Source: Candidatus Omnitrophota bacterium (GTDB taxonomy: Bacteria > Omnitrophota > Gorgyraeia > Zapsychrales > Zapsychraceae). Taken from it: a stretch of DNA of 64,000 bases. This document shows, in pieces, positions 796 through 36,360 of this stretch. Position numbers and translations under genes: made by a program. Location: the NCBI GenBank assembly GCA_003528115.1, contig DOGZ01000006.1:64076-128075 (forward strand), in the 5' to 3' direction. Positions within the stretch are counted from its first letter, which is position 1, and every line of letters starts with the position of its first letter. The notes beneath the pieces were generated by a model. It ran no database searches and was not told where the DNA came from. It saw only the letters and a list, made by a program, of their open reading frames with translations.

Positions 796-2226
796 TCACA
801 AGGCCTGCATTCCCCGACGGCACAATTCTCTGGCATAGTCCGTCCAGATACCTTGCCCCCAATACCGGAAACAGCTTGTCTGCGATAAAAGCAAATAAAG
901 GAAGGCTTCCCTATACGAATGACTTTTTACGTCAACTTTTTTGCCGTCAAATTTCTGATGAAAAGCCGCGCTTAATTTATTGATAGGATCCAGCACATCC
1001 TCATACCCCTTGACCCAATTCTTATCGTTGGTCCATGAGCCTTTATCGAGATTAAAACCCGCGTCTTTGTCATGAATTTTCTTGATCGCCTCATCGCAGG
1101 CGCCCGGGGCGAAACGATGTATTTCCTTCCATATCCTGTGCTGAGAAATAGGCTGAAGTGGAATAAACGAGGCCTCCTGAACGCCCGATTGTTTTAAAAA
1201 CTCCAGGTATTCCGATCCGTTCATGGCCACGTTCCCCTCGGTTCCAATCTCCGCGAAGGCGACCCTGTAGGCAGGTGGAAATTCATTCATCATCACCCCT
1301 CCGTTTTCCCCGTCACCGATCTGGCAGACAAAAGGAGGAATTTCCCGGCCTGCAACTTCCTGTTTTCCCGTAGATTTTGCCTCGTAACACGGCTGCATCT
1401 GGGCCACCAGTTTTGTATCCGAACCTTTTGTTTTGATCAGAGCCGTGATCTCTGCTGTTTCCCCCAAAGAATTCTTCGCCACCAATCGATGAGGCACGTG
1501 AGGTCGACGGATGCCGCTCCCGTCCAAATTTTCAACCGTATGCTCCTGGACCATCAGCCATTCATACCCGCACTCTTTTAGAGCCTTGACATATTCATAA
1601 CAAACATCCGGGTGGATCGGGAGATGCATTTCCGGCGGAGAAAACCCTTTGACTCTTCCGGCCGCCTCTTCTCCAAAGATAGCGGCGAAATGTTTCCGCC
1701 AGGCCATGATCTGCAGCTTGATATCCGGGACAGGCGTGGAACTGACAACGGCATGCGACCACGTCGTGCCAAGCCATTCAACATAGCGGTGATATTTCTT
1801 TTCTGAAGCAATATGTTTTAAATTTTCCAGCACCCGGCCGCCTTCCATCTGCCGTAATCCCCACAGGAGATTTCCGGAATAATCCAGCATCACCCGGGGA
1901 TTGCGTCCTTGATCGACGAGTTCCCTCACAATGTCCGACATCCTCGAATAACACTGCATAAAGACCGAGGCGTTGTGGTTATCCCCTATGTGTGGATTCT
2001 CCATCATATGCTGAAGATTGGAAATGAGCCCGGCGGTCATGAGGTCGCCTCCTCCGGCAGGGATGGTTGGTTGATGCATATGCAGGGCAATGCCGAAACT
2101 CGCTGAAACCCTGTTGAATTTAATATTCGACAACGGGGCATACTGCGGACTTTTTAAACCGGATAATTTCTGAATATCCTTTTCATCAAACGTGATATTA
2201 GGTAATCCCTCGATGACATCCGACAT
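796..2226 (-). CDS. glycoside hydrolase family 57 protein (alpha-amylase/alpha-glucanotransferase-like)
   Basis: 476 aa with HMHQP-type motif (GIALHMHQPTIP) typical of the GH57 N-terminal catalytic region. Adjacent to a GH57 branching enzyme and a glycogen-synthase-like GT. Confidence 0.55.
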   Translation of the reverse strand: MSDVIEGLPNITFDEKDIQKLSGLKSPQYAPLSNIKFNRVSASFGIALHMHQPTIPAGGGDLMTAGLISNLQHMMENPHIGDNHNASVFMQCYSRMSDIVRELVDQGRNPRVMLDYSGNLLWGLRQMEGGRVLENLKHIASEKKYHRYVEWLGTTWSHAVVSSTPVPDIKLQIMAWRKHFAAIFGEEAAGRVKGFSPPEMHLPIHPDVCYEYVKALKECGYEWLMVQEHTVENLDGSGIRRPHVPHRLVAKNSLGETAEITALIKTKGSDTKLVAQMQPCYEAKSTGKQEVAGREIPPFVCQIGDGENGGVMMNEFPPAYRVAFAEIGTEGNVAMNGSEYLEFLKQSGVQEASFIPLQPISQHRIWKEIHRFAPGACDEAIKKIHDKDAGFNLDKGSWTNDKNWVKGYEDVLDPINKLSAAFHQKFDGKKVDVKSHSYREAFLYLLLSQTSCFRYWGQGIWTDYARELCRRGMQAL

Positions 2227-2239
2227 CTCATCCTCCTCC

Positions 2240-3988
2240 TCACTTGACCTTGGACTTCTTTCGCCGCGCCGGTGACGCGCTTTTGGCGAAGGAGGTCTTT
2301 TGTTTCTTTGGAAGTTTTTGACTTTTCTTCAGAGCGCGCCTGCGGCGCTCCGGCTTCTTCTCCTCTTTTGGAATGGAATAATACCCCGCGCAATCCATGT
2401 GAGAAAAAATATTATCCCTCCATTCCACTTCTTTTAACCATGCCTCATCCAGGGTATTCTCTCTCAGGTCATGATACAAGCGCGTGAATCGCCCGATATG
2501 CTGCCTGACTCTTTTTTCAGCGTAAGCGACCATGGTCCCTGTCTTCATAATAAAAGGCCAGTCGCTGGCCTCGGCTAACAATAATTCCCTGGCGGCTTGA
2601 TTCACTGCCCGGCGGATAAAAGCTTGAGGGCCTGAGCGTTGTCGGGTTCCTTTTTTTCGCGCGGAAAAAAACTTTTGGGCTAATTCCCTCATGCGCTCGC
2701 CGGCCTTATGGACATGGCGATAAATCCAATCGTTTCCGCCATTGAGCCAGAATTCATTGTATCCCTTATAACCCCAGCTTGAAGCTGAGGGCACAGCCAT
2801 TTGATTAACAGGGTTGTCCTCGAGGTACTCAGAAGGCGTCTTTAACTCGATCGTTTCTTGGTCATAAACAATCTTTCGAATAAGAAAATCAATCCACATC
2901 GGGCCTTCAAACCACCAATGGCCGAACAATTCAGCGTCGTACGGAGCGACGATGATCGGTTTTCGGTCCATATGGGCCGCCAAGTGCTCAATCTGCTTTT
3001 CCCTGTTAAACATAAAATTCGCGGCGTGGCTTGCCGCTTTTTCCTTTGCCCAATCCGGTCTGTACACTTCTTTGTACTCCGTGGGACCGGTAATTCTCCA
3101 ATATTTAATACCTGTGTTTATTCTGATCCCCTGAGGATGAATATAGGGTTTGATATATTCATAATCAAGTTCATGCCCGATATCTCTGTAATACTCCCGG
3201 TAATCGACGTCTCCCGGATAGCCTTCTTTGGAACTCCAGACCTGTTTGGAGGATTCCCAATCCCGGCCAAAAGCCGCCACTCCCGACGGGCAATAAACCG
3301 GCGCGTAAACGCTGTACCGGGGTGTAGGATCCGCGTTGACGATCCCATGCGAATCGATAAAAAAATACCGCACCCCGTTCTCTTTCAAAATATCATCTAT
3401 GCCCGGAGCATACCCGCACTCCGGCAGCCAGATTCCTTTCGGCGGACGCCCAAATACTTTCGTGTAAAAATCCACCCCAATTTGAATCTGCGCCCTGGCG
3501 GAAGAGAGATTTTTCCCGATCATGGGCAAAAAACCGTGCGTCGCGCATGAGGTAATCACCTCGAGACATCCAAAATCCTGAAATTTTTTAAACGCCGCGA
3601 CAATATTATTTTGATACTGCCGCGTAAAGATCTCTTTAGTCCTTTTGAATTTCTCGTTATACATTAAAGCCAACCCGTGATAAAGCGGCTCATACCCTGT
3701 CCGGCTGATCTCTTTGTCCGACAACTCAATCAATTGATCAATATGCCGCAGGTAACGTTCTTGCAGGAAGGGATCCAGAAGCATCGAGGCCAGGGTCGGG
3801 GTTAAAGACATGGTGATCCGGAAGTTTATGCCGTCACGAACAAGCCGGTCAAAAACTTCAATGAGAGGAATATACGTCTCGGTGATCGCCTCGAAAAGCC
3901 AATTCTCTTCCAGGAAATATTCTTCTTCCGGATGGCGGACAAAAGGCAGGTGCGCGTGAAGCATCAAACATAAATAACCTTTGGACAT
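2240..3988 (-). CDS. GH57-family 1,4-alpha-glucan branching enzyme with C-terminal Lys/Arg-rich tail
   Basis: N-terminus LCLMLHAHLPFVRHPE... matches the GH57 branching-enzyme signature (HxHLPF). Length 582 aa. The last ~45 aa are KKPERRRRALKKSQKLPKKQKTSFAKSASPARRKKSKVK. Confidence 0.75.
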   Translation of the reverse strand: MSKGYLCLMLHAHLPFVRHPEEEYFLEENWLFEAITETYIPLIEVFDRLVRDGINFRITMSLTPTLASMLLDPFLQERYLRHIDQLIELSDKEISRTGYEPLYHGLALMYNEKFKRTKEIFTRQYQNNIVAAFKKFQDFGCLEVITSCATHGFLPMIGKNLSSARAQIQIGVDFYTKVFGRPPKGIWLPECGYAPGIDDILKENGVRYFFIDSHGIVNADPTPRYSVYAPVYCPSGVAAFGRDWESSKQVWSSKEGYPGDVDYREYYRDIGHELDYEYIKPYIHPQGIRINTGIKYWRITGPTEYKEVYRPDWAKEKAASHAANFMFNREKQIEHLAAHMDRKPIIVAPYDAELFGHWWFEGPMWIDFLIRKIVYDQETIELKTPSEYLEDNPVNQMAVPSASSWGYKGYNEFWLNGGNDWIYRHVHKAGERMRELAQKFFSARKKGTRQRSGPQAFIRRAVNQAARELLLAEASDWPFIMKTGTMVAYAEKRVRQHIGRFTRLYHDLRENTLDEAWLKEVEWRDNIFSHMDCAGYYSIPKEEKKPERRRRALKKSQKLPKKQKTSFAKSASPARRKKSKVK

Positions 3989-4008
3989 AGACTTTTATCG
4001 ATAGGTTA

Positions 4009-4185
4009 TTGACCTCCGTACAACTAATGGAACCCCCTCTTTTAGGAAACGGAGGTCGAGATACCCCTGCTTTCCAAATAAAACGCTTAGAGGAAGCAGG
4101 GACGTCCCAACTACCTCTGAATGATTCTTTGAGGGAAGTTGGGGCTGACTGCCGTAATGTTCCATTACTTTTAGGGAAGTCAGTA
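4009..4185 (-). repeat. structured intergenic repeat, family A copy 1 (leader of GH57 branching-enzyme gene)
   Basis: Shares TTGACCTCCGTA...GGTCGAGATAC...CTGACTGCC..TGTTCCATTACTTTT...GGAAGTCAGTA blocks with 18259-18354. Internal 9-bp perfect inverted repeat (gacctccgt/acggaggtc). Copy 1 carries an extra insert with two further hairpins. Confidence 0.5.
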
Positions 4186-4204
4186 GTTAAATCGAAAGCT
4201 TCTT

Positions 4205-5512
4205 TCAAGGGGCGTATAAGGTCTGGCTGCGTTCCACGGATGTGGAAATACTTCGGCTATCCACTTTGTCCGATGAAACGGCCACAAAAGGAAACGGGAT
4301 TTTCCCGTCGGGTAAGGCATACCGCAAACTGAACGTTCCGTCTTGACGTAAAGGGATTCTTTGATCCGCCAAATGAACCTCGGCATCCGGTTCCGTGCGG
4401 CCATACACAATAAGTTCCGTCCAAATTTCAAAAAAGAATTTTCTTCTTTTTTCTTCGGGCGCGCTGGAAATCCCCTGCGGCCGCGACTGACTCAAGGACT
4501 GGCTCGCCCCTCCTTGGATGGCCAGCTCCTCGGAGGATCCCAGGATAAATTTCTTATAAAATTCTTTCCATGTTAACCCACCCAGCCAATCTTCATCCAG
4601 AAGAACCCCTTCTTCGGAATATACCCTTCGAGCGTTTTCCCTCTCTAATATGAAAAGATTTTTCCCGTTCTTTCTTTCTGAACCTCTCCCTACAACCCTT
4701 TTAAAAAGAGGCACAAGTCTTTCATAATAACTCCTGACTTCCTCCGCGCTTAAAGGGATCCTCCCTCGGGCAAATGTCCTTGGACGTCCCTTGCTTTTAG
4801 CCAAGAACCCCGCGCCTTGAACACCTCTCCCGGAACTTTTCTGAATTTTAGACTCTCCCATCACGAACGGGGCTGGAGGCTCCATCGGGTCGCTCTTCCT
4901 CTCCATCCAAATCATATCTTTTCGTCCCGAAAGTCCTCTACGCGGCGTGATCACATTATTGGACCTGGCTAAAGTGAAGAAATCCCCGCCGGCCATGCGA
5001 AGGCCTATATCACAACAGTAGGACGTATTTTCGCCCCAGACATTGACATACCAATTGTTGGCCAAAGGACCGACATCCATATCAAACCAATGATTGGCAT
5101 TGGCGCCATTAAAATCCTTAAACGTTATGTCATACATCCTTAAAACATAAACCGCTTTATTAAAGTCCTGACCGGTCTTTTTCTTCATCTCTTCGATAGA
5201 AGACGGGGCAATCTCCCAGTAGGCATAGAGCCAGTAAGGATCTCGGGCCATGAGCGTCACACTGGTTGTGTTATAACTGGAAGGAAGCTCGTAACTGTCG
5301 ATTTCTTTTTTAAGAAAAGAATTTCCCGGGGGAATCGGATTGGATTTATCTAAAGGGAGCGGTAAAACAGACTTGTGTTTTTCCGGCAGAGGTTTTGACA
5401 GTTGTTTCTTGGGTAAGCGGCGTGGAGGATGTTGACCGCTTGAAAAAACGTTCTTTTTTTTTATCAAGACATCCTTTGGACTTTTATCTGTCTTGGATTT
5501 TTGCCGAATCAA
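4205..5512 (-). CDS. DUF4912-like protein associated with GH57 glycogen clusters
   Basis: 435 aa. Central region (ARDPYWLYAYWEI...WYVNVWG) resembles the DUF4912 family that typically neighbours GH57 branching enzymes. This is recalled, not searched. Confidence 0.4.
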   Translation of the reverse strand: MIRQKSKTDKSPKDVLIKKKNVFSSGQHPPRRLPKKQLSKPLPEKHKSVLPLPLDKSNPIPPGNSFLKKEIDSYELPSSYNTTSVTLMARDPYWLYAYWEIAPSSIEEMKKKTGQDFNKAVYVLRMYDITFKDFNGANANHWFDMDVGPLANNWYVNVWGENTSYCCDIGLRMAGGDFFTLARSNNVITPRRGLSGRKDMIWMERKSDPMEPPAPFVMGESKIQKSSGRGVQGAGFLAKSKGRPRTFARGRIPLSAEEVRSYYERLVPLFKRVVGRGSERKNGKNLFILERENARRVYSEEGVLLDEDWLGGLTWKEFYKKFILGSSEELAIQGGASQSLSQSRPQGISSAPEEKRRKFFFEIWTELIVYGRTEPDAEVHLADQRIPLRQDGTFSLRYALPDGKIPFPFVAVSSDKVDSRSISTSVERSQTLYAP

Positions 5513-5524
5513 ATTCTATTCTCC

Positions 5525-6685
5525 TTAACTCTGATAAACGGTCAAGACTTCATCGGCGATGGTGTCCCAAGAAAAGACCGTTTCAGCCGCCACGCGGCCG
5601 TTGGCGCCCATCCATCGGGCGTGTTCAAAATTAGCAAACAACGTTCCTATTCCCCACGCGATAGAATCCGAATTAGCGTTGATTTTAAAACCATTGACAT
5701 CGTGCCATACAATTTCCGAAGGTCCCCCGTTTATGCTGGCAATGACCGGTTTGCCGGCGCTCCAAGCCTCCAGAATAACGATCCCGAAAGGCTCATTGCG
5801 ACTGGGGATACAGACGCAATCACAAGCCTTAAAAAGATCCACCAGCTTCCAGCCGCTCAAATGTCCAAGGAATTTCGTCGCGTGACTAACGCCCCTGTGC
5901 CGCGCCGTGTTTTCAACACTCTGACGCATCGCGCCGTCACCGACAAAAACGAATTTAGCGTTATGATAATATTTCAAGACATGGGGAATGGCTTCGACCA
6001 GAAGATCCGGCCCTTTCTGAACGGCCATTCTTCCCGCGAACAAAACCACAGGATCCATCGTCCCGATCTCATAGGACTTTTTCACGGCCCCTGGATCAAG
6101 CCAACCGTCGAAATTCCTGTAACTAATGCCGTTATATATGACATCCATTTTCCCGTCGGGAACGCTGTAAATCCACTGGACCTCATTTTTCAGCGCGTTG
6201 GAAACCGTGATCACATGGTCGGCACAATAGGCTCCATGCCATTCAATATGCCGGATCCGTTCGGAATTCCCGCCCCAAAAATGGTTACCGCTGCGTCCAT
6301 ATTCCGTGGAATGCAGGGTAAAAACCGCTTTCCGGCCGCGGCCTTCTTTGATCCAGGACATCGCGTTCGCCGTCAACCAATCATGCGCGTGAACAATATC
6401 AAAAGCGCCTATGTGATCCTCCGTCTCAAAAAAGGTATGCACGAAGGAACGGCACATATTATTCATCTCTTCAACGAAATCCGGATGATGGGCGAAAGGA
6501 CAACGATGATAATGAACGCCGTCTATCCGTTCATACAGGGCATGGTCATGCCGTCCCATCCTGGTAAAAACATGCGTCTCATGCCCCTTGCGTTCCAGGG
6601 CGCAGGCCAATTCCGTCACATGACTGGCCACCCCACCGATATAAATAGAATGAGCGGTTTCCCAGGAAAAAAGAGCGATGCGCAT
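5525..6685 (-). CDS. GT4-family glycosyltransferase (glycogen synthase-like)
   Basis: MRIALFSWETAHSIYIGGVASHV... is a GT-B fold N-terminus. The C-terminal half has a GT4-like E-x7-E region (FGIVILEAWSAGKPVI). Start overlaps the CBM48 ORF stop by 1 nt. Confidence 0.7.
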   Translation of the reverse strand: MRIALFSWETAHSIYIGGVASHVTELACALERKGHETHVFTRMGRHDHALYERIDGVHYHRCPFAHHPDFVEEMNNMCRSFVHTFFETEDHIGAFDIVHAHDWLTANAMSWIKEGRGRKAVFTLHSTEYGRSGNHFWGGNSERIRHIEWHGAYCADHVITVSNALKNEVQWIYSVPDGKMDVIYNGISYRNFDGWLDPGAVKKSYEIGTMDPVVLFAGRMAVQKGPDLLVEAIPHVLKYYHNAKFVFVGDGAMRQSVENTARHRGVSHATKFLGHLSGWKLVDLFKACDCVCIPSRNEPFGIVILEAWSAGKPVIASINGGPSEIVWHDVNGFKINANSDSIAWGIGTLFANFEHARWMGANGRVAAETVFSWDTIADEVLTVYQS

Positions 6686-7035
6686 TAAATAGAAATTTCC
6701 TTTAGTGAGTTAACCGTTCCGCTCGGGCTCATAACCGTTTGCTTATTCGCCGGATCTGTCCACCACTGCTGATCCACAATAAATTTATATTCATACCGTC
6801 CCGGCGCCAACTCAACGCCCACTCTCCAAAGGCCATCTTTATCTTTCTTCATGGGAATTCCGTTCACATCCCAGGCCTTAAAATTACCCGTTAGAGCGAC
6901 CTTTTTGGCCGCGGGAGCCGCAAGTTCAAAATAAATTTTCTTTTTGAATAAGCTCTTCTTTACGGTCTTAAATAACTCTATCGTCGATGTTTTGGACGTA
7001 ATACCTTTCGTTATTTTTTTCACTCTGTTTTGCAT
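6685..7035 (-). CDS. stand-alone CBM48 / AMPK-beta glycogen-binding domain protein
   Basis: 116 aa. VALTGNFKAWDVNGIPMKKDKDGLWRVGVELAPGRYEYKFIVDQQWWTDP matches the CBM48 (isoamylase N / AMPK beta GBD) sequence pattern. Confidence 0.6.
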   Translation of the reverse strand: MQNRVKKITKGITSKTSTIELFKTVKKSLFKKKIYFELAAPAAKKVALTGNFKAWDVNGIPMKKDKDGLWRVGVELAPGRYEYKFIVDQQWWTDPANKQTVMSPSGTVNSLKEISI

Positions 7036-9139: not shown

Positions 9140-12100
9140 TTACGCCAAAATTTCAGCGTAACCCAAACGTCTCTCTACCGGTCCAAGACTTAAGTTGTAA
9201 CCCTGTTCCGTTGATTTCTCATCTTGAGCGGCATTAAAAGGTTTGGATTTCTGCTCCTGACCGTAATCCGAATCAAACAGCCGAGGGTCATCAAACCCTA
9301 ACATCATCGGGATTTGCATATTATTCATGATAGGCTTGATCTCGATCAAGACCGGTAAAACGCCCTGGATATTGATCTGCTTGATAGGCTGCTGCCAAAC
9401 CGGCAAAGGCTTGCCGTCAGGATCACGCAGAATCTGCATATCCAGCATCGTGGGATCTAAATTGATACCACCCTGGCGTTCAACGCGATCTGCTCCTGCC
9501 TGACCACCGTCACTCTCCAAGGATTTAATCAATTGATCTAACTCGCTTAATCCATTTTTATTGACTTCAACCATCAATGCCCTGTCGAGCTTGCCATCGA
9601 TTTCTATCAATCGATTGTATTTTGCGGTTCGATCAGACCTTGAAAGAGAACCTGTTTTTATCCAGACCCGAGGCATTCTTTTTGTAACAGAATGCCGACC
9701 TTCCATCAACGTTGTAGCCCACTTTGCCAGATCAGCGATGAGGGTATCTTCTGTTTCTCCGGACCTGTGGGAAATCTTGACTGATATACCCATCAATAAT
9801 GCCAATCGTATTAACTCTTTTGTTTCTTTAATGCTTCCAACCTGGTTTACCTTGACCAGAATTGAGTTGATGGTATGCGGCGGGAAGGTCAAAATTTTTC
9901 CGGCGAATTCTATTGTTTCACCACGAACCGCCGCCTTCAATTGCCTCAAATTTGTCACCAGTAAATCATCCCCAACTGTATCTATTCCCATTTTTCTCTG
10001 CATATCGAAGGCCAGTGATTCATACTCGGGTGTCCCGGAAAGTGATGCCTGATTAGCAAATGTCGTTAACCCTTGGTGGCCCTTCATATCATTTTGATCA
10101 AAGGAGTCTTCCAGGGAAACAATAGGAAATCTGCGAACTAAGTCTATCCAGAACAATTGAAGTTCCTCTCTGTTTAGAACAAGAACATCACGTCCCTCAT
10201 ATTTGTCGATCTTTCCAATTAATTTTTCCTCATCTCCAGCTTTTATTGTGATTGGCTTAACATTGCCTTCCTTGTCCCTCTCTCCTTCTAACCAATAAGT
10301 TATCTCACCATCCTTACCTATGAAAGATCTCTCGCTAAACGCCCCATCTGTGGCAAAACCTATTTGTTTTCCAATAAGGTTACCCCATGGTGATTCCTGA
10401 ACGACTTCTGAGGCAATCCTCAAATAATCACTATTAGTAGGAACATTCGGCGCGAATCCTCCTTCATCCCCCACGTTTGTGTTAAGCCCTAATTTCTTTA
10501 ACTTCTTTTTTAAAAGTTGAAATAATTGGGCCTTAACAAAAATGGCTTCTTTTTCAGTCCTTATCGCGTTAGCACCTGTTGCCTGTGTATCTGGCACCAC
10601 GACAAGCATGGTCTCTTGAATATCAACATTGTTATCAGCATGCTCTCCACCATTCAAAATATTGGCTTGTGCTATAACATCATTAACAGGCTGGGGCCCT
10701 GGGTTCAACTCAAAGACTTCCACACCCTTGAGAGCAGCCGTCAAACGCAATGCCGCTGAAGAAATGGCCAAAATCGCGTTGGCTCCGAAGTAATTCTTCA
10801 ATTCCCAGTTCCCTCCAAATTGTTCTTCCATTTTTTGTAACCAGTCATCAATACTCCCCTCAAGCCCGGGGTAAACTTTCTTATCCCATATCGCTTGCTC
10901 TAGTTGTCCAATTAAAAATTCCGCTCGCAAAGCTGCGACCCTCGTTCCTTTGGACGAATACTTCTGAAGCCAGTCAATGGCCTCTTCTTTTGTGTTGGCT
11001 TTACCATCAGTCAAAGTTTTTATGACAGATGCCTCGCTAAGGTAAACAGTGCCTTTGGTATCTTTAATAGCAAACTCCGCCTGACCAGTCTTCACTCTTT
11101 TGGCAAAAGCATCGTCACGAATTTCTAAGGCCTCTCGTTCTCCTGTGGATGCCCCTGAAGGAACATAACCAAACCCTTGCTTCTCATTAAACCACAGTTT
11201 CACTTTTAAAGTTTGATTGCCGCGTGAGTCCAAAATACGCAACACCCTGTTTTGCTGGGAAATCATCGCCGTGTCCTGTGACCGGCTCTTTTGATAATCT
11301 CTTACCATTTCTGCCGACCCATTACTGCCAAAGGCCTTGAAGTGTTCGATGGCTGACGCCTCAATCGCTGCCGTGATCCTGTCTTTCACCCATCCCGGCA
11401 ACGCCTCCAACTCTCCCATAAACTTTCCAAAAATATTCTTCAATTCTTTTCCAATGAGCTTGTTCAGCTTCTTCGCTTCCGCTCCCTCACGCTTCTCAAC
11501 TCCATAATTCTTACCACTGTTCACAATCAAATCATCAATGATCCGATTCACTAAATCCTGCACCTGTTCGTCTTTTTCACCAACTCTAACCAACTGCTCC
11601 CACACAATATTTTGCCAGTGGGTCGCCACATGCGCGGATCTGATCCCCGCTGCCCTTAAGTACGGCAAATTCCTTAACGGCGTACCGGTCACCCCATGCT
11701 GGACGATCTCTATCCTATACGGCTTTAACGCGTCACTAATCGCCTTGGTCATCTGTAAATTCATCTGCGTCTCTATCGGGTTACCCTCTTTGTCATACGT
11801 GTTGCCATGGGATGTTCCGTTGTTGATCGCCAACCGCTCAATCTTGACACCATAATCCAGCAGCCCCTTACCTTCTTTCTCAACGATTGGATTTCCTTCA
11901 TTGTCTAACACTAATTCTGATGAGATGACAGCCCCCGTCTTCTCATCCTTGACCAATCTCTCTTGATACCTCTTCCCTGTCACAAATTCCAGGGCATCGG
12001 CTACCGTCGAGTTTGCATCGTCACCAATCTCGCCAACCTCGGCCTCATGACTGGCGTTCTCCGGCAAGAATCCATCCAAGAATGCCGTGATCAATACATT

Positions 12101-15100
12101 AAGCCGCGTCGGCATAAACGAAGCATCTAACGCAAAGACCGTAAACCCGGCGTCCACTTCCGCCTTCACCAGCTCATATGCCTTCTTGATGGCTTTTAAC
12201 GCGTTGGCCACATTCTCGTTCTCCTTTAACACCTCATCTCCTGTTGCCTTCAAAAACGCCTGGGCACGTTCTGACTTCCCAGAAATCTTCAGGATATCCT
12301 CGAATAAACCCGCCACAATGTCTTGCGCATTCTGATCTTTGATAAAATTATCATTTACCTTGACCGTGATATGATCACCCTTTAAAACATAGTCTGTAAA
12401 TTGGTTCCTCTCTCCTGCCTCCCGCACCGCATCGGCCAATAACCGTGCATTCTCCGGCTTGTACCCGCCCGGCCAGGTATATCCAAACTCACTCAACGCC
12501 TGCTGGAATATCACCACACTCCCGGTCTTCTTCGCCGCCTGCATCATCCCGGGCAATATCAGCAGCGTTCGGATATTTACCGCCATCGTCACTACATTAG
12601 ACCCTGCCTCACTCTCCAACGCTTCGTATAACTCCCGACCGGTCAATTTATCCGCTACCATGGCCGTGTCCGATGTGGCCGCGTCTCCCATCGCCTTTCG
12701 CATCTCAACAGCGGTTTGACGGATTTGGGCTTTAACCGGAAGCGCTCCGAAATGGATATGCCGTATCCCGTCGCCATGTTTCTGTTTCAAATCATTGATA
12801 TCCTTCATAACCTCCGCGATAGTGGTCTCTTTATTCATCTTAATAACAAGGTAAACGGAGTTCTTCGACTCTTTATAGTCTTTTACAAGCCTTTCCAATT
12901 CTCCTGTTTTATTACCTCCTGCTTTATAGATAATGCTCTTATATCGCCCCCCCAAAGCACTCAACAAAGCTCCAGGAACACGTTCATCTTCCCTCACCAA
13001 AGGTGTTATGCCGTTTTCAATAAAATTCGTTATTTGTTTTTGTACTCTTTTCGGGTCACTACTATCAAGGATTGCCGCTGTAACACCCATTTTCTTAAGC
13101 AATTCCGCCGACAGATGCGCTGTATAGGCTCCAATTCCCTGTGTGCTAACCCCATCTGTCGCCTCAACGACAAGGTCTACATAATTCTTTGCGTTTGGAT
13201 CTAAAGGTTGAATATCAAATAACGAAGCGGCGGACTCATCTCCCTCCAATACCTTCTGCCAGGCGCGATAGTCAGTCATAGGAACGGCATGAATAACCTT
13301 CACTTTGCCCTCTAAATTTAATTTCTTGGCTTCATAAGCCTTCAAATACTTTTGGGCTGAAGGTGTATCCATCTGCTTGCCATTAAAAATAACAGTTAAT
13401 TCATCTCCTGATCGAAGGGCAGCCTCAACTATGTTGGCTGTCGAATCTTCCCCTTCCTGGGCTTCTGCCTTTGCTGATGCCCGTCCGATAAAAGCCCCAA
13501 CATATCCAACCTTCTTGGTTAACCCGCCGATATTTTTCACGTTGGCACCACCGCCATAAATTAATGGAACGTCCGTCTCTGCCACTCCAACTGCTTTGGC
13601 AATGGCCTTGACAATGTATTCTTTTCGATACTGAGCCAAGGAATCAGGGATAGCCGTTGTCTTGATACCATTAACCGGTTCATAAGGATTGTAAATACGG
13701 CTCATGTATTCGGCAGGCATACCTTTGTACAAAACATTGATCTGTCCTTCGATTTCACCCTGCGTACTTAATTCTTCAATAATTTTATTCCGCAGTTCAA
13801 CGAGGGCAAATTTCTGAGGGGCGGATAAATCATCCTTTGTATATCCCCAGGCCGTCAGCATCTCCTTCAATTCTGTATCCGATGTTAAACTCTCAAACGT
13901 GCCGGTTTCAATCTTTTGCTTAAATTCAGGGGTATCAGTGATTCTTTGTTTATTCCTATCCTTTAAAAGACTCCTCAACTCTTTAATGGCGAACTCTTCC
14001 TCACGCACGTCCTTGGAATATCCAAAGGCCTGCAATAATAAGGAAGATTCTCGCTTAAAAGCATCAAAATCAATCGTTAAATATCCATCCATCCTTCTAA
14101 TAAAATCATCCAGACGGTTCTCGAAATCAGTACGTTGTGCCACTGGTTTATCAGAAACATATAACTCCGTAGCTTTTAATTTTATATTATTCTGAGTGAA
14201 ATTTCTTAAGGCTGTATAATCGTTTGTGATTTTTGTTCCTTCCCACATACGCTCAGGAAAGTCGCCAAAAGGATAAATCACATTAAAACCAGCCTTTAGA
14301 AATAGCTCCGCCTGCTTTCGGGCCATTTCGGCCGTAACTCCCAAATATTCTCTTGTCTCTGAATGATTGATCACAACGGTTGACGCGTAGGGAACATCTT
14401 CGGGCCTTACATCAGGTCCAATCTGAACGGCAATACTGATCGGACTTACTCTATAAAACTCCTCGCCATTCTCATCTCTGTAAGACTCCACATTCTTGGT
14501 GACGTTCATTAAATTTTGAAGCTCTTTTGTTCCTTTACGTTTATCAATTTTTCTGGCTTCCATAAACCGCTCTAAAGAAACCCCCTTATAATTAGCCTTT
14601 CCAATAGTTTTTAAGGCATCAAGAACATCTCTATTGATTTGGCTCAAAATCGCCTTATCTGATTTTGGTATAAGAACACCCTCTTTGTTGATGTTAGTCA
14701 ATACAGCCGGATCAGCCTTTTCCCCAACGGTATAACCATCAAACGTTGTTATATATTTATTCGTCGCTGTTATCAATGCTGGATCAACCTTCACACCTTT
14801 AAGCGCATCCTTGCCTTTAATTGTAGTCAATTGGGCTTTATCCACACCGAGAAGCCCGCCGGAGAAATACTTTCTTGGCAATACTTCCTGAGCCGCCGCG
14901 TCATAATCTTCCCGGATATAATCAAAGACACCCTTCTTAAAAGCCTCGAGATATTGGTTGTAAATCTTGATTTTAACGTCCTTGTCCGCGATATCAACGC
15001 CGGTGGTCTTGTTTTTATCCATATAAATCTGGCCCAAAAGACTTTCTTTGAGGTTGACCTTGTACCACGTGGCCAATATCATGGAATTGTAAATCTGGCG

Positions 15101-15934
15101 GAGTTTGGCAAAGTTCTTGCCTTCATTGACTTCTTTTTCGATCTCAGGGATAAGCACTTCCCGGACAACATCCGAAGAAATACCGCTAATGACCTCGGTC
15201 TCCCCTGTGCTTAAGTCATTCATGCCGAATTTTGCGCTGTCTTTATTCTGTTGCAGGGCTAAATAGTCCTCTTCCAGCATGACCTTCAAATGGCTCTGCA
15301 AAACAAAGATATTGTTCTCATTCTCATAAACAACTGCCTTATTCGGCACAATCCAGACTTTGTTAAAAGTATTCAGCGGAATATCGGTGGAACCATATTT
15401 TTCCTGGGCTTTAGCGTAAACCCTTTCCCAGAATTTCTTTCCAAGCTCATCTTCCGGATAAATAAGAGAAGCGGTCAATTGCTTGAGGATGTAGTCTTGC
15501 GCCAAAAGATCACGGCCTAACTCGGTCTGACCTAATTGATTAGGAATGATCCGGTTTTTTTCATACGGAGAAAGGTTGACCCACATTTCTTTTTCCGGGG
15601 TTGTCAGCGTGGCCAGGAAATATTTAACGAGTTTGGTGGATTCCGCGGCCAATTCATCCCCCTGAATCCCTGTATCGCCTGTATCGACAATGAAATCAAA
15701 GCGTAACGGATTATCTGGATACAGAGTCATCCCCTGAATCATAGTAGGGGTAAAGCCTTCACTCACAGGAACCATGGCTCCAACGGCAGGCAGATTCAAA
15801 CCTGCCTGCGGCACAAACTGGGCATAGCTTGCCTGCGGCGGCACGATCATGCTGGAAATGAATGTAACGGCAATGAATGAAGAAATGATTTTACTCATGA
15901 AATTATTCTTGGTCTGGGGAACGATAAGATACAT
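9140..15934 (-). CDS. giant (~2264 aa) secreted multidomain protein fusing TIM-like, class II FBA-like and enolase-like domains
   Basis: Uninterrupted ORF. Likely start is ATG at 15932-15934, preceded by GGAGG with a 9-nt spacer (the ORF-track start at 15940 is a TTG inside that spacer). Signal-peptide-like N-terminus (...IISSFIAVTFISSMIVPPQASYAQ). Internal enolase motifs VPSGASTGEREALEIRD, LNGGEHADNNVDIQE, NVGDEGGFAPN, VKVNQVGSIKE, SHRSGETEDTLIADLA, IKTGSLSRSDRTAKYNRL. Class II aldolase motifs GTSHG...VQHGVTGTP and EAEVGEIGD. TIM motifs NHSETR, YEPVNGIKT, IYGGGANVKN...GRASAKA. Confidence 0.8.
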   Translation of the reverse strand: MYLIVPQTKNNFMSKIISSFIAVTFISSMIVPPQASYAQFVPQAGLNLPAVGAMVPVSEGFTPTMIQGMTLYPDNPLRFDFIVDTGDTGIQGDELAAESTKLVKYFLATLTTPEKEMWVNLSPYEKNRIIPNQLGQTELGRDLLAQDYILKQLTASLIYPEDELGKKFWERVYAKAQEKYGSTDIPLNTFNKVWIVPNKAVVYENENNIFVLQSHLKVMLEEDYLALQQNKDSAKFGMNDLSTGETEVISGISSDVVREVLIPEIEKEVNEGKNFAKLRQIYNSMILATWYKVNLKESLLGQIYMDKNKTTGVDIADKDVKIKIYNQYLEAFKKGVFDYIREDYDAAAQEVLPRKYFSGGLLGVDKAQLTTIKGKDALKGVKVDPALITATNKYITTFDGYTVGEKADPAVLTNINKEGVLIPKSDKAILSQINRDVLDALKTIGKANYKGVSLERFMEARKIDKRKGTKELQNLMNVTKNVESYRDENGEEFYRVSPISIAVQIGPDVRPEDVPYASTVVINHSETREYLGVTAEMARKQAELFLKAGFNVIYPFGDFPERMWEGTKITNDYTALRNFTQNNIKLKATELYVSDKPVAQRTDFENRLDDFIRRMDGYLTIDFDAFKRESSLLLQAFGYSKDVREEEFAIKELRSLLKDRNKQRITDTPEFKQKIETGTFESLTSDTELKEMLTAWGYTKDDLSAPQKFALVELRNKIIEELSTQGEIEGQINVLYKGMPAEYMSRIYNPYEPVNGIKTTAIPDSLAQYRKEYIVKAIAKAVGVAETDVPLIYGGGANVKNIGGLTKKVGYVGAFIGRASAKAEAQEGEDSTANIVEAALRSGDELTVIFNGKQMDTPSAQKYLKAYEAKKLNLEGKVKVIHAVPMTDYRAWQKVLEGDESAASLFDIQPLDPNAKNYVDLVVEATDGVSTQGIGAYTAHLSAELLKKMGVTAAILDSSDPKRVQKQITNFIENGITPLVREDERVPGALLSALGGRYKSIIYKAGGNKTGELERLVKDYKESKNSVYLVIKMNKETTIAEVMKDINDLKQKHGDGIRHIHFGALPVKAQIRQTAVEMRKAMGDAATSDTAMVADKLTGRELYEALESEAGSNVVTMAVNIRTLLILPGMMQAAKKTGSVVIFQQALSEFGYTWPGGYKPENARLLADAVREAGERNQFTDYVLKGDHITVKVNDNFIKDQNAQDIVAGLFEDILKISGKSERAQAFLKATGDEVLKENENVANALKAIKKAYELVKAEVDAGFTVFALDASFMPTRLNVLITAFLDGFLPENASHEAEVGEIGDDANSTVADALEFVTGKRYQERLVKDEKTGAVISSELVLDNEGNPIVEKEGKGLLDYGVKIERLAINNGTSHGNTYDKEGNPIETQMNLQMTKAISDALKPYRIEIVQHGVTGTPLRNLPYLRAAGIRSAHVATHWQNIVWEQLVRVGEKDEQVQDLVNRIIDDLIVNSGKNYGVEKREGAEAKKLNKLIGKELKNIFGKFMGELEALPGWVKDRITAAIEASAIEHFKAFGSNGSAEMVRDYQKSRSQDTAMISQQNRVLRILDSRGNQTLKVKLWFNEKQGFGYVPSGASTGEREALEIRDDAFAKRVKTGQAEFAIKDTKGTVYLSEASVIKTLTDGKANTKEEAIDWLQKYSSKGTRVAALRAEFLIGQLEQAIWDKKVYPGLEGSIDDWLQKMEEQFGGNWELKNYFGANAILAISSAALRLTAALKGVEVFELNPGPQPVNDVIAQANILNGGEHADNNVDIQETMLVVVPDTQATGANAIRTEKEAIFVKAQLFQLLKKKLKKLGLNTNVGDEGGFAPNVPTNSDYLRIASEVVQESPWGNLIGKQIGFATDGAFSERSFIGKDGEITYWLEGERDKEGNVKPITIKAGDEEKLIGKIDKYEGRDVLVLNREELQLFWIDLVRRFPIVSLEDSFDQNDMKGHQGLTTFANQASLSGTPEYESLAFDMQRKMGIDTVGDDLLVTNLRQLKAAVRGETIEFAGKILTFPPHTINSILVKVNQVGSIKETKELIRLALLMGISVKISHRSGETEDTLIADLAKWATTLMEGRHSVTKRMPRVWIKTGSLSRSDRTAKYNRLIEIDGKLDRALMVEVNKNGLSELDQLIKSLESDGGQAGADRVERQGGINLDPTMLDMQILRDPDGKPLPVWQQPIKQINIQGVLPVLIEIKPIMNNMQIPMMLGFDDPRLFDSDYGQEQKSKPFNAAQDEKSTEQGYNLSLGPVERRLGYAEILA
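9566..11257 (-). other. enolase-like domain of giant protein (residues ~1562-2125) with catalytic residues apparently intact and two large insertions
   Basis: Near-identical matches to canonical enolase blocks (listed under the CDS). Coordinates were checked by back-translation: 11123-11164 reverse-complement encodes VPSGASTGEREALE. Confidence 0.8.
11591..12649 (-). other. class II fructose-bisphosphate aldolase-like domain of giant protein (residues ~1098-1450)
   Basis: VVTMAVNIRTL...PGMMQAAKKTGSVVIFQQALSE (cf. YAVGQFN...AILQAAEEEKSPVILGVSEGA), EAEVGEIGD (cf. EAELGTVGG), NGTSHGNTYDKEGNP (cf. GSVHGPYKGEPN), IVQHGVTGTP (cf. LVLHGGTGIP). Confidence 0.6.
13451..14458 (-). other. triose-phosphate-isomerase-like domain of giant protein (residues ~495-830), with a ~150-aa insertion
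   Basis: HSETR (cf. TIM HSERR), YEPV(N)GIKT (cf. YEPVWAIGTG), IYGGGANVKN and GRASAKAE (cf. IQYGGSV...VGGASLK). N-terminal NWK-type motif not recognised. Confidence 0.55.
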
Positions 15935-16169
15935 TGACAAAAACCTCCGTTTAAGGATAAACGATTTTATATTTAACTTATTGGATTAATTCAAGTTAAG
16001 TTGCTAAAGATCTAATAGTTGCAGAGCAAGAAGGTGAGAAAACGTTTTTTTAATTAGTTCAAGTGGTGAAAAGATAACATGTTTCTACGGGGAAAACAAG
16101 GGGGGGTGGTAAGAAAAAAATGGAACTTTTTGCCTTCATTTAAACAGACATGCGTTCAAAAATCAGGAT

Positions 16170-28643: not shown

Positions 28644-30605
28644 TTACTTATGACGTTTATCTTTCTGACTTCTGCTGTTTGTCCCCTTGCCTCCCCTGCC
28701 CCGAACGACGCCGCGGGATGCGCTCTGCGCTTTTGGAAGGTTGTCCTTGTTTTTACGCTCGTGTTCCATGCGAAGATCACGCAAGAGGCGGGGATGCATA
28801 TAACTCTCTTGAGCGAGCGCTTTCCATGGCCGCGTCTGGCGCTCACGCTCCGACTCGGACGCCGCGTAATCATATCCGAGATCGGTACCCGCCATGACTT
28901 TAAGCATCATGATAGCTTCTTTACGAATTTTAATATTCGGGGCTTCGAGTTTCGGCACAAGGTTAACGAAGGCAAAATGATTAGCCATTGACCCGAGTTT
29001 TCGGATCGCGATACGCGCGACACTCTCATCGCTGTCATTCGCTAAACTCGCGATGGCCGTCGCTTCAGGCTCCCCCCCTGTGTGCTCCAGATAGTTCACG
29101 ATAAATCTGCGGACATGAGGGGCATGATCACCGATCGCTGATAGAACAACGTGCTTCGCTTCCACGGAGCCGAGTTTGACAAGCCCCATCATTCCCGCAA
29201 GCCGCAACGAAGAATTTTCGTCCGTTATAAACCGGCGGTAAAGGCCGACCATCGTCGGATAATCCAGCAGGCTCAAAAGAGACAGGAGTTGTCTTTTGGA
29301 AAATATATCCGCGTCCCTAACTAATTCATAGAGAAAGAGGACTGCCCTTTGGGGGGCATTACGGAAAAGGGTGTGCAAAACCGTCAGTTTCTCATCATTA
29401 TCAGCGATTTCACTTTTCAACTTGCGAGAAGCGGTCTCAAAAAAACCGTAGTCATCTATGTCATCGGTGCCCTCTTCCGTTCCTTGTTCCGCTGTGGGAA
29501 ATTCTTCCACTTCTTCTCCGGAAGATTCTTCAACGGCCGTTTTTTCTGAATTTTCCTCAAACGGGCATTCATCCAGGGTAGGCGATTCTGTGGAATCCTC
29601 CGACGAAGTTATAGGTTGAGGGACCGCAGACCTCAGGGCTTCCCGATCCTTTTCTTTCTCCCGGGCTAACCGACCCTCCTCAAGGTCTTTTTCGTACACC
29701 TCCTTGATATTCTTAAAAAGACCGACGACTTCATCGATAAGAACATCTATGCGCTTGGTTGTCTGGACCACATCCTGGTCGACCCGTGCGAGAAAATCCT
29801 CTTCGGTTTTCCATGATGTGCTTTCAGTGTTTTCGGTAAAGAATTGTTTTTTCTTTTCCATCATGAATTTTATCACCTCCCGTTTCTTCTCCATCAGTAA
29901 AGTAATCGTTTGTATCTTTTCATCCACGGCGGCCTGATAAGCCGCAGTCCTCTCACCGGTCACATGCAAAAGACCGCCAGAGATACAGTCGTTAAAATCC
30001 CTTCGGACCTCATGGAGGCTATTTGCAAGAAAACGGAGGTCGACCATCAGTTCAGTATATGGCTCCAGTTGGCCCCGCCGTTCGATACCAAGACTGTGTC
30101 GTCCTTTTTCTTCCGCAGCCGCCATTGGGCGATCGGAGCGAGAGGGCGGCGGAGTGCCGGATCCAGGCGATTTGGCCAAAAACACGTTCTTGACGCCCTT
30201 TAAAATCGCCGCCACTTTATTTTTTTGGGCTTTAGGTCTGGACGTGGCGACTGAAGGTTTGACCGCAACTTTCATCTTTGACGCTTTGGTTGGCGCTGTC
30301 CGCTGAGAGGTGGCGGAGAGGCCAAGTTTAGGTATTTCGACAGGCTCCGCGCGCCGCCTGAGCCTGTCCTGGGCCTTGGATTGAGAAAATCGAGGGGTTG
30401 GTTTCTTGTTAGAAATCTTCTGCGCGACAATATCTCGAATAAGTCTCTTGGCCTGCGTTGTTAATGCGCCGTCAGTTGGATCGAAATAGTAAGAAATAGC
30501 GCCGGCCTGAATATTCTCGTATAGCAATCTACCGAAAGAGGTAAACAGAGAATCTACCTGCGTGTCGCATTCCTTAAGAAGTTCCTGTGTCTTTTTTGTG
30601 ATCAT
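28644..30605 (-). CDS. HEAT/PBS-lyase repeat protein with coiled-coil and acidic N-terminal region
   Basis: C-terminal half has HEAT-like repeats (SSLRLAGMMGLVKLG...HVRRFIVNYLEHTG...ESVARIAIRKLG...IKIRKEAIMMLKVMAG). Confidence 0.55.
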   Translation of the reverse strand: MITKKTQELLKECDTQVDSLFTSFGRLLYENIQAGAISYYFDPTDGALTTQAKRLIRDIVAQKISNKKPTPRFSQSKAQDRLRRRAEPVEIPKLGLSATSQRTAPTKASKMKVAVKPSVATSRPKAQKNKVAAILKGVKNVFLAKSPGSGTPPPSRSDRPMAAAEEKGRHSLGIERRGQLEPYTELMVDLRFLANSLHEVRRDFNDCISGGLLHVTGERTAAYQAAVDEKIQTITLLMEKKREVIKFMMEKKKQFFTENTESTSWKTEEDFLARVDQDVVQTTKRIDVLIDEVVGLFKNIKEVYEKDLEEGRLAREKEKDREALRSAVPQPITSSEDSTESPTLDECPFEENSEKTAVEESSGEEVEEFPTAEQGTEEGTDDIDDYGFFETASRKLKSEIADNDEKLTVLHTLFRNAPQRAVLFLYELVRDADIFSKRQLLSLLSLLDYPTMVGLYRRFITDENSSLRLAGMMGLVKLGSVEAKHVVLSAIGDHAPHVRRFIVNYLEHTGGEPEATAIASLANDSDESVARIAIRKLGSMANHFAFVNLVPKLEAPNIKIRKEAIMMLKVMAGTDLGYDYAASESERERQTRPWKALAQESYMHPRLLRDLRMEHERKNKDNLPKAQSASRGVVRGRGGKGTNSRSQKDKRHK

Positions 30606-30626
30606 AATTTTTAAGTACTAGACCCT

Positions 30627-31127
30627 CTACACGTCCTTTACATCCTCGGTCATTTTTTCGATTTCTTTTTCAAGATCAACGTTGACCGGCGCCTCTTTTT
30701 TAACAGTTGTTTTGTTCCCAACCTTCTTAACCTGGCCTTTAGCTTTTCCCTTAATCATACCCTTGGCTTCTTTCTTCACCATCTTCGCCGGCGAAGAAAG
30801 AGAAGAAATTTCTTTTTTTTCTTGGCTTTCTTTCCTAGTTTTACTCTCGGCATGGCCTGTTTCGACGGATTCCATCCCCGCCTTAAAGGACTCCCCCATA
30901 TCTTTCGTGCTTTTCTTAACGGTCTTTTCCACCTTTTGAAACACGTCCCCGGCCTTCTCGCCGACCGTCTCACACAACTCCTGTGTTACGGAGACCATCT
31001 CTTTCCAAGGTTTCGTTTTCGCGACCTTGCCGAGCCCCATGACCTTCCGACAAAGGGTCCCTGTGCCGTAAGCAACGCTTTTCATGAAATTTTTTCCTAC
31101 AGCCTTTTTACTTTTTTCTTTTGTCAT
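30627..31127 (-). CDS. Lys-rich hypothetical protein
   Basis: 166 aa, about 25% Lys, no recognisable fold. Confidence 0.35.
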   Translation of the reverse strand: MTKEKSKKAVGKNFMKSVAYGTGTLCRKVMGLGKVAKTKPWKEMVSVTQELCETVGEKAGDVFQKVEKTVKKSTKDMGESFKAGMESVETGHAESKTRKESQEKKEISSLSSPAKMVKKEAKGMIKGKAKGQVKKVGNKTTVKKEAPVNVDLEKEIEKMTEDVKDV

Positions 31128-35058: not shown

Positions 35059-35116
35059 TCCTTTTTATCAGAAAGCCTTCAGCTTTCATCTGGAGGCTAA
35101 TAACGATTACCGCTAA

Positions 35117-35299
35117 TTACGTGCCTTGCGGGTGATCCTGACGGCCTAACAAAAAATAAAGGATCATCCCTATCAAGGGCAGAATAAAAATCAGTACGCT
35201 CCAGAGAATTTTTTTTGCCATCGGCAGATATCCACGTAACACATCCACAATGACGCCAATCACCAGAAGAACGTAAAAAACGCCTAATAAAGATTCCAT
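35117..35299 (-). CDS. PLDc_N-like small membrane protein
   Basis: 60 aa, two TM, pattern resembling the PLD-nuclease N-terminal (PLDc_N) family (ILWSVLIFILPLIGMILYFLLGR). Confidence 0.45.
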   Translation of the reverse strand: MESLLGVFYVLLVIGVIVDVLRGYLPMAKKILWSVLIFILPLIGMILYFLLGRQDHPQGT

Positions 35300-35333
35300 G
35301 GCTTTCCCTCCTTCTTTTTATTGTTGTTGATCC

Positions 35334-36347: not shown

Positions 36348-36360
36348 GCTGTAAATCTCC

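Follow-up and report, generated by a model that had tools for sequence, protein, structure and literature searches.

The 64,000-nt stretch of a Candidatus Omnitrophota genome analyzed here (GenBank assembly GCA_003528115.1, contig DOGZ01000006.1, positions 64,076-128,075; hereafter the window) contains, on its minus strand at 9140-15934, a gene for a 2264-residue protein in which domains resembling triose-phosphate isomerase (TIM), class II fructose-bisphosphate aldolase and enolase are joined in one frame. Homology searches revealed that the protein shares an N-terminal module (head) and a short C-terminal module (tail) with a large number of proteins that carry other cargo, of cytoplasmic enzyme types, between the same two ends. 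The reading we favor, and to which we give about an even chance, is that the gene encodes a Sec-exported modular carrier-cargo enzyme of an Omnitrophota-specific family, destined for the envelope, the surface or another cell. The features of the gene are as follows (window coordinates; aa, residues of the 2264-aa protein):

9140-15934, minus: whole coding sequence, 2264 aa plus stop (9140-9142); start assigned from the ribosome-binding site and the N-termini of homologues
15944-15948, minus: Shine-Dalgarno sequence GGAGG, 9 nt upstream of the ATG at 15934; other genes of the window have the same type of site
15821-15934, minus: signal-peptide-like segment, aa 1-38, with K9 and K15 in the n-region, IISSFIAVTFISSMIV as the h-region and PPQASYA as the c-region, followed by Q39
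14855-15820, minus: family N-module, aa 39-360, 55-68% identical to 119 matches and ending in the invariant RKYFSGG (14855-14875)
14384-14854, minus: linker and unassigned region, aa 361-517, with no family match and low AlphaFold2 (AF2) confidence
14645-14659, minus: degenerate junction motif DKAIL, aa 426-430 (motif scan)
13415-14383, minus: TIM-like part A, aa 518-840 (Pfam TIM, 1.7e-16 on the fragment)
13769-14137, minus: insertion of ~120 aa within part A, aa 600-722 (alignments to solved TIMs)
12671-13414, minus: TIM-like part B, aa 841-1088 (Pfam TIM, 20.8 bits, E 3e-4; PDB alignments)
12656-12670, minus: junction motif D-T-A-M-V, aa 1089-1093; its Met lies where a free-standing class II aldolase would begin
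11276-12661, minus: class II fructose-bisphosphate-aldolase-like domain, aa 1092-1553 (Pfam F_bP_aldolase)
11261-11275, minus: junction motif D-T-A-M-I, aa 1554-1558; its Met lies where a free-standing enolase would begin (M + 10 aa + LDSRGN)
9587-11266, minus: enolase domain, aa 1557-2116, with five insertions (Pfam and TIGR01060)
9572-9586, minus: degenerate junction motif D-R-A-L-M, aa 2117-2121, before the tail (motif scan)
9299-9472, minus: family C-module core, aa 2155-2212, GGINLDPTMLDMQILRDPDGKPLPVWQQPIKQINIQGVLPVLIEIKPI..IPMMLG, ~20 aa from the C-termini in 111/119 best hits
9143-9298, minus: acidic spacer and terminal motif ..YNLSLGPVERR.., a weakly conserved motif in many members

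The scan for open reading frames (ORFs) returned one minus-strand ORF at 9140-15940, or 2266 codons counted from a TTG at 15940. The ATG at 15934 is the most likely start, because of the GGAGG upstream of it and because it is the point from which over 100 homologues align at their N-termini. A first-pass annotation, made from the sequence alone, had described a single uninterrupted frame of 2264 aa, and this was confirmed, with no stop or frameshift across 6.8 kb.

The search with the full-length protein returned more than 100 proteins of 1,200-3,600 aa that matched it only over the first ~350 residues and a short C-terminal stretch. The head was found in all 119 best hits and the tail in 111 of them, and the cargo between the two varied. 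Metabolic cargo of relatives comprised PGK, UDP-glucose pyrophosphorylase (UGPase), phosphoglucomutase (PGM), glucose-6-phosphate isomerase (GPI), GAPDH, PEPCK, isocitrate lyase/malate synthase, phosphoenolpyruvate (PEP)-utilizing enzymes and starch-synthase domains, and signalling and other cargo included receiver, GGDEF, sigma-54 AAA and radical SAM domains, HEAT repeats and more. When 1.84 billion cluster representatives were searched exhaustively, the head module turned up in 8,062, at E ≤ 1e-30 in 6,273 of these; the architecture, presented in the first-pass annotation as singular, is therefore that of one member of a family with shared ends and interchangeable cargo. A genome scan with one genome per species gave at least 575 confirmed loci. 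The 77 loci that were kept came from Omnitrophota/Omnitrophica or from entries named "uncultured Planctomycetales", "Planctomycetales bacterium" or "bacterium", which are possibly mis-assigned; no more than seven of the 77 came from one genome, and the window holds just this one copy. Same-strand tandem arrays of two or three family genes were seen in 17/75 loci (L004, L005, L008, L013, L015, L019, L028, L031, L035, L037, L044, L045, L050, L052, L057, L063 and L073).

Neither the head nor the tail has relatives among Pfam, NCBIfam or PDB sequences. The tail motif covers ~55 residues and reads GGI[DN]L[DN]P..LDLQIKRDGNGVPLP..QQPI..M.I.GF.PVIINI.P...LP.LLG, its core block also being written GGI[DN]L[DN]P...LQIKRDGNGVPLP...PVIINI.P; G56, G57, I58, D72, G75, Q83, I90, G92 and P95 are invariant in the alignment of this region (alignment A2). 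The same alignment contains a weak motif, (D)LSYNLSL.P.E.R.R, that follows the acidic spacer near the extreme C-terminus of many members. One invariant Gly-Gly ends the N-module (RKYFSGG), and another opens the C-module (GGI[DN]L, window 9467-9472). For the head, AF2 gave a mixed alpha/beta model with a pLDDT (predicted local distance difference test) of 66, to which no structural neighbours were found. The C-module was also considered as a folded sorting domain, and this was rejected, as AF2 gave mostly coil with a pLDDT of 60 and no globular fold.

Within the protein, strong hydrophobicity is confined to one segment in residues 1-38, and the ~20 residues after this segment contain no charge. 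Since positive charges stand before the helix and none after it, the bulk of the protein is predicted to lie outside. The signal-peptide-like N-terminus recognized in the first-pass annotation holds up at the level of the family, in which heuristics applied to 198 members found a hydrophobic core in 196/198, a net-positive n-region in 195/198, and [ASGTV]-x-[AG]-Q after helix-breaking prolines in 169/198. A twin-arginine signal was rejected; the family consensus ..L.YRILS.. has a single Arg and the core is strongly hydrophobic, which points to Sec and not Tat.

The 2264 residues include no cysteine. Beyond residue 45, family members contain 0.04-0.05% Cys, ~20-fold lower than the 0.9-1.14% in neighbouring genes of the same genomes, and canonical enolases carry 3.9 Cys each on average, with 1/119 being Cys-free. 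The other signal-peptide proteins of the window are likewise Cys-poor, whereas its soluble cytoplasmic neighbours have 6-8 Cys each. Bacteria that lack efficient oxidative folding are described as excluding Cys from the proteins they export, and the same signature has been described for substrates that cross the outer membrane unfolded. Because the signal-peptide features are family-wide and the Cys exclusion is shared with the signal-peptide proteins of the window, we infer that the protein is exported, the location these data support best.

All three enzyme types in the middle of the protein scored above the Pfam gathering thresholds (Enolase_C 2.9e-51, TIM 2e-18, Enolase_N 1e-17, F_bP_aldolase 1.1e-13; the search was run on the 2252-aa protein from an in-frame ATG at 15898, to which 12 is added for the 2264-aa numbering), and NCBIfam found the same three enzymes, all far below equivalog cut-offs. 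Judged by these profiles, the three domains are divergent versions. The composition given in the first-pass annotation was thus borne out, all peptide blocks quoted in it are present in the protein, and the large insertions it reported are real (~120 aa in TIM and five in enolase, with ~100 aa also in aldolase); its description of three consecutive steps was mistaken, as aldolase and TIM catalyze steps 4 and 5 of glycolysis and enolase step 9. Histidine is also low in the whole protein (0.8%).

The enolase domain aligns with solved enolases along its whole length, interrupted by the five insertions, and is 34-36% identical to canonical enolases. It scored 64.9 bits with Enolase_N (PF03952; cut-off 35), 175 bits with Enolase_C (PF00113; cut-off 21.5), and 245.1 bits with TIGR01060, below the equivalog cut-off of 300. 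The blocks SGASTG, GGEHADNNVDIQE, GDEGG, ATDGA, LEDSF, GDDLL, VKVNQ, SHRSGETED and IKTGS align with the matching blocks of the solved enolase 6bfy, and alignment to E. coli-type positions revealed that neither the catalytic residues (Glu, Lys and His) nor any of the three metal ligands has been lost and that the SGASTG loop is also kept, in agreement with the earlier claim that the catalytic and metal-ligand blocks are conserved. The only close relative of the domain is P0217, which is 61% identical and shares the N-domain insertion; it is a 474-aa fragment on a 1.5-kb metagenome contig, in which the upstream region joined to the enolase is a different one, rich in transmembrane segments (two long hydrophobic stretches), indicating reuse of the same cargo type in another context. 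The enolase domains seem to be permuted in a family member at L057 (12782-14062), where one frame encodes first the barrel (canonical residues 144-415) and then the N-domain (14-95); this recalls the split TIM described below. No free-standing enolase was found in 1.35 Mb of Omnitrophota DNA, a sample too small to support a conclusion, in which every enolase match lay inside family ORFs; in the same DNA a full-length TIM match (L055) lay inside a family ORF, and TIM matches of L068 and L004 are unplaced, that of L004 lying upstream of the family ORF.

In relatives, catalytic Cys are kept in GAPDH (SCTT), isocitrate lyase (KKCGH), radical-SAM (CxxxCxxC) and PEP-utilizing (GVCGEHG) domains, and in P0011 the KKCGH of isocitrate lyase holds the single Cys of 2577 aa; most of the 159 Cys remaining in relatives have no known motif assigned to them. 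The active site of the enolase, kept intact in a fast-evolving domain of ~35% identity to canonical enolases, together with the sparing of catalytic Cys in relatives, argues that catalysis is under selection in the cargo domains. For the same reasons the proposal of a decoy, made in the first-pass annotation, is unlikely.

The aldolase fragment matched F_bP_aldolase (PF01116) at 8.3e-16 over profile positions 17-248 of 277, with ~100 aa of insertions, and scored 51.9-58.8 bits against a gathering cut-off of 25.5; with the equivalogs TIGR01859 and TIGR00167, whose cut-offs are 343 and 216, it reached 28-30 bits. The motifs GDH, AGFTVFALDAS, EAEVGEIG, GTSHG and VQHGVTG occur in canonical order. 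Alignment to solved class II aldolases is weak and confined to the AGFT..EAEVG segment and VQHG, and GDH was assigned by inspection, across a ~55-aa insertion, so that the metal-ligand assignment is partly by inspection.

The TIM-like region is split and atypical. On the whole protein the profile (PF00121) scored 67.3 bits against a cut-off of 20.1, split in three stretches, and the equivalog TIGR00419 38.3 bits against 130.6. Alignments to solved TIMs, and to E. coli TpiA, place in part A HSETR (His95 equivalent), YEPV (Glu165 equivalent), the phosphate loop IYGGG, and GRASAK; the same alignments revealed no recognizable beta1-beta3 with Asn11/Lys13 ahead of part A. Part B, which the first-pass annotation had left as an unassigned region of ~220 aa, is a second, degenerate TIM-like segment that matches TIM beta3-beta4 at the Pfam threshold. 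By inspection, it has GAYTAHLS and FNGK (a possible Asn11/Lys13 equivalent), and LDSS and YKAG replace GHSE and YEPV, that is, His95 and Glu165. The earlier assignment of a TIM-like domain is thus upheld by a significant Pfam score and by the motifs, with the reservation that the unit may not form a complete active barrel and is probably incomplete; its layout would fit either a permuted barrel or two defective units in tandem. A tandem duplication of parts A and B was not supported, the self-similarity (41) being not significant against shuffled sequences (mean 36.6 ± 4.8). No relatives of the TIM unit occurred among the sequences collected; a homologue search with the unit (window 12671-14650) gave no match and missed even the identical GenBank protein, and is therefore uninformative.

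A motif, D-x-A-M-[LMTVIA], marks the junctions of aldolase and enolase; 309 family sequences contain 401 copies of it, where 18.5 would be expected. The enrichment is specific: 21.6-fold over expectation with D and 0.5-fold with E, 0.9-fold with G for A, 1.3-fold with L for M, and likewise none with S for A. Its density was 0.77 per 1000 aa in the family versus 0.076 in the remaining ORFs of these loci, and its copies are concentrated in linkers, 66 of them following the N-module and 39 preceding the C-module. In P0063 the motif Met falls at the canonical start of GAPDH, as it does at those of aldolase and enolase here. Outside the C-module the strict motif was present in 86/182 complete members, and cargo junctions without it are common (e.g., PGK in P0014 and GPI in P0047). 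The search for inter-domain cleavage sites proposed in the first-pass annotation thus found a motif at both enzyme junctions, though half of the members lack its strict form. Two functions at the level of nucleic acid were rejected. As an internal translation start the motif lacks a Shine-Dalgarno sequence (true genes of the window carry GGAGG/AAGGAG upstream), G is depleted at -10, synonymous sites are unconserved and D is preferred over E; as a DNA recombination site it is unsupported, since synonymous positions are unconserved. The absence of both synonymous conservation and a ribosome-binding site indicates that the signal acts at the protein level, and our guess is that it is a processing or docking site.

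In the exported-carrier reading, a Sec-type signal peptide (aa 1-38, cut probably after SYA) would take the unfolded chain out of the cytoplasm. The N-module (aa 39-360) and the C-terminal motif (aa 2155-2212) would act as common modules for sorting, anchoring or assembly, and the middle would be interchangeable cargo. In this protein the cargo comprises a TIM-like unit, atypical and in two parts, together with a class II aldolase and an enolase that are each set off by D-x-A-M. The cargo domains are predicted to be working enzymes, not relics. They could convert fructose-1,6-bisphosphate to triose phosphates, and 2-phosphoglycerate to phosphoenolpyruvate, outside the cytoplasm, which is conceivable given that divalent metals are all that aldolase, TIM and enolase require.

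Several points weigh against this reading. Export and signal-peptide cleavage are deduced from sequence heuristics. No conserved secretion or accessory gene adjoins the family genes; none was found among 50 downstream neighbours, nor was PilZ, and the only recurrent downstream neighbour was another family member (9/50 cases). The N-module has no recognizable fold and the C-module is not predicted to fold alone, and the roles given to them are guesses. The part of the TIM unit that bears His95 and Glu165 appears to lack the Asn11/Lys13 region. Finally, PGK, GAPDH, radical SAM, receiver and sigma-54 AAA cargo elsewhere in the family needs ATP, NAD, SAM/Fe-S (iron-sulfur) or partner kinases, which fits poorly with a periplasmic or extracellular location after Sec export; this difficulty is smaller for the 2264-aa protein, because its three enzymes need only metal ions.

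A wider version of the exported-carrier reading is possible but on balance doubtful. Omnitrophota would keep a phylum-wide, signal-peptide-addressed and Cys-purged second set of cytoplasmic-type enzymes that act outside the cytoplasm of the producer; the N-module and C-terminal peptide would form a new system of sorting or head-to-tail assembly, with D-x-A-M as its processing or docking site. On this tentative view the set might extend to thousands of clusters and to glycolysis, glycogen, nucleotide-sugar metabolism and signalling. The enzymes might, with equal reserve, be placed in an active envelope or intracellular compartment, in a surface matrix, or in another cell.

Among the alternatives, a polyprotein survives best, although we consider it unlikely. 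Cleavage at D-x-A-M (e.g., between Ala and Met) would free aldolase and enolase with native-like N-termini, the head and tail serving for delivery only, and such processing would be compatible with export. The strict specificity and enrichment of the motif, its position in linkers, the coincidence of its Met with canonical starts of three enzymes, and its action at the protein level all favor this view, and the preprint of West-Roberts et al. (2023, 10.1101/2023.11.21.568195) proposes cleavage of giant Omnitrophota proteins. On the other hand, fewer than half of the complete members carry the strict motif outside the C-module, many cargo junctions are without it, and no protease gene is linked to the family genes in their loci. 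We know of no protease with D-x-A-M specificity.

A membrane-tethered metabolon in the cytoplasm, with an uncleaved N-terminal anchor that would hold the enzymes on the cytoplasmic face for glycolysis or glycogen metabolism in small cells, appears less probable again. It would supply the cytoplasmic cofactors that the cargo requires, the gene adjoins a glycogen gene cluster, and a 2026 preprint (10.64898/2026.06.07.730766) considers inner-membrane anchoring for its giants that have only transmembrane segments. However, charges lie before the helix only, which predicts an N-in, bulk-out topology; a small-x-A-Q site is conserved after helix-breaking prolines; and the 20-fold exclusion of Cys, shared with the other exported proteins of the window, would be left unexplained.

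Delivery of the protein or its cargo into a host or prey cell, the central metabolism of which it would rewire, is a third alternative that we regard as improbable. The cargo is cytoplasmic in type and would find ATP, NAD and sugar phosphates in a recipient cell, the Cys purge resembles that of substrates travelling unfolded, and molecules have been inferred to pass into prey from some Omnitrophota that live as epibiotic predators. The layout, with its N-terminal trafficking region, short motif and variable cargo, may also recall polymorphic toxin systems. Nevertheless, housekeeping enzymes would be odd effectors and no translocation machinery is linked to the family loci. A host of the organism, assumed in the first-pass annotation when it spoke of a host-dependent bacterium, is not established; the window carries a magnetosome gene cluster, which Lin et al. 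(2018, PMC5955933) had reported in Omnitrophica GWC2_45_7.

That enzyme folds here make up a scaffold, adhesin or decoy without catalytic function, of the moonlighting-enolase type, is very unlikely. The domains are strongly divergent, have large insertions and fall below NCBIfam equivalog cut-offs (245 versus 300 for enolase), and the TIM unit is probably incomplete; yet every catalytic and metal residue of enolase is kept at ~35% identity, and the sparing of catalytic Cys amid the purge makes sense only if catalysis is selected.

As for the assembly, GenBank contig MHGD01000054.1 matches window 15704-6140 at 100% identity and with no gaps. The identical GenBank protein is a "hypothetical protein" of Omnitrophica WOR_2 bacterium GWC2_45_7, 2170 aa long; it is without the signal peptide and the first 94 residues because of an 81-N scaffold gap that falls inside the gene, at window 15705-15800 (L078 220-300). 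At this position the window has 96 nt that encode, in frame, the family consensus LNLP..G.MV...F.P..I.G.T..PDNPL. The continuity questioned in the first-pass annotation is therefore supported by the identity to this contig and by the consensus gap fill, with the remaining qualification that the triple combination of TIM, aldolase and enolase was seen only in this organism. An assembly chimera or hidden frameshift fusing separate genes, in favor of which stand this uniqueness and the location of the scaffold gap within the N-module, is extremely unlikely, since family-typical head and tail lie 6.8 kb apart in one unbroken frame, as they share one frame in more than 100 independent assemblies, the gap fill encodes family consensus, and the same kind of protein joins TIM and aldolase in P0002-P0004 and bears enolase in P0009 and P0010.

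The first-pass annotation considered the architecture undescribed, which is no longer tenable in this general form: two preprints already place glycolytic domains in large, predicted-extracellular proteins of Omnitrophota. In West-Roberts et al. (2023, 10.1101/2023.11.21.568195), the giant Archaeovorins contain TIM, GPI, FBPase, PGM, aldolase and PPDK domains and are predicted to be extracellular, a localization that the authors doubted while suggesting proteolytic processing. The 2026 preprint (10.64898/2026.06.07.730766) describes giants with a "multi-enzyme metabolic cluster", a signal peptide and many transmembrane helices. The phylum, the glycolytic-type domains in long predicted-exported proteins and the puzzling destination are common to these giants and the protein described here. 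The giants differ in their size (10,000-147,000 aa) and many transmembrane helices; the present protein, with 2,264 aa and one hydrophobic segment, lacks the tens of thousands of residues and many transmembrane segments that define Archaeovorins. The general phenomenon is thus known, and the protein is a small, single-anchor variant of it. The shared N-module, C-terminal motif, Cys purge and D-x-A-M are not described in the available text of either preprint, and no description of the head/tail family, of a purge that spares catalytic Cys, or of the junction motif was found in the literature searched, the coverage of which was incomplete.

Other known systems share single aspects. PGK-TIM of Thermotoga (NF010569) and TPI-GAPDH of stramenopiles (PMC3527533) also fuse glycolytic enzymes in one polypeptide, and in the latter a targeting peptide relocates the fused enzymes; whereas these join two adjacent steps in canonical, cytoplasmic or mitochondrial enzymes, the protein described here joins three non-adjacent steps in divergent domains between a family head and tail. 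The two-partner-secretion (TPS) domain, a C-terminal beta-barrel of the autotransporter kind and the C-terminal domain of type IX secretion (T9SS) gave no Pfam or NCBIfam match in the protein, and no partner transporter gene is linked to the family loci.

The moonlighting surface enolase of many bacteria is an ordinary cytoplasmic protein without a signal peptide. The likeness is that an enolase would stand outside the cytoplasm; the enolase described here differs in being a dedicated, signal-peptide-bearing, Cys-free paralogue within a fusion. Polymorphic toxins and CdiA have a signal peptide, a conserved N-region, motif-bounded variable cargo, many paralogues and low cysteine. By analogy, all these features of layout seem to be shared by the carrier family, which differs from CdiA in a mixed alpha/beta N-module instead of a beta-helix, in its housekeeping cargo, and in a conserved C-terminal motif after the cargo. 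Exclusion of Cys is described in Gram-positive exported proteins and autotransporter passengers; unlike in these, it affects classic cytoplasmic enzymes here and spares their catalytic Cys.

The main interest of the protein lies in the family and in the destination of its enzymes. If working enzymes do leave the cytoplasm, the central metabolism of the phylum would not be confined to it, which would bear on the feeding of the ultra-small, often partner-dependent Omnitrophota and would account for the odd metabolic content of the record-size Omnitrophota proteins. With its head module, tail motif and junction motif, the family offers a defined, tractable entry point, at a 2-kb scale, to a problem that until now has been approached only through giants of 10-147 kaa. 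Where enolase, PGK or GAPDH is scored as present in pathway reconstructions of Omnitrophota, exported paralogues may be among the genes counted, and the sparing of catalytic Cys amid the purge is a clean natural experiment on Cys exclusion.

In the window, the gene has a TerC/DUF475 membrane protein gene upstream and a convergent PAS-GAF-GGDEF gene. Downstream is the glycogen cluster (796-7035, minus), which encodes two GH57 proteins (one a branching enzyme), a DUF4912 protein, a GT4/GT5 synthase and a CBM48 protein; these are without signal peptides and have normal Cys contents except for the 116-aa CBM48 protein (0 Cys). HEAT/FecR genes lie at 28644-33269. The magnetosome gene cluster occupies 34453-47517 on the minus strand, making the organism a putative magnetotactic member of the Omnitrophota, and contains the following genes:

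LemA (MamQ-like)
TPR (MamA-like)
two CDF transporters (MamB/M-like)
PDZ + magnetochrome (MamP-like)
trypsin + PDZ (MamE/O-like)
TauE
PDZ + CitMHS

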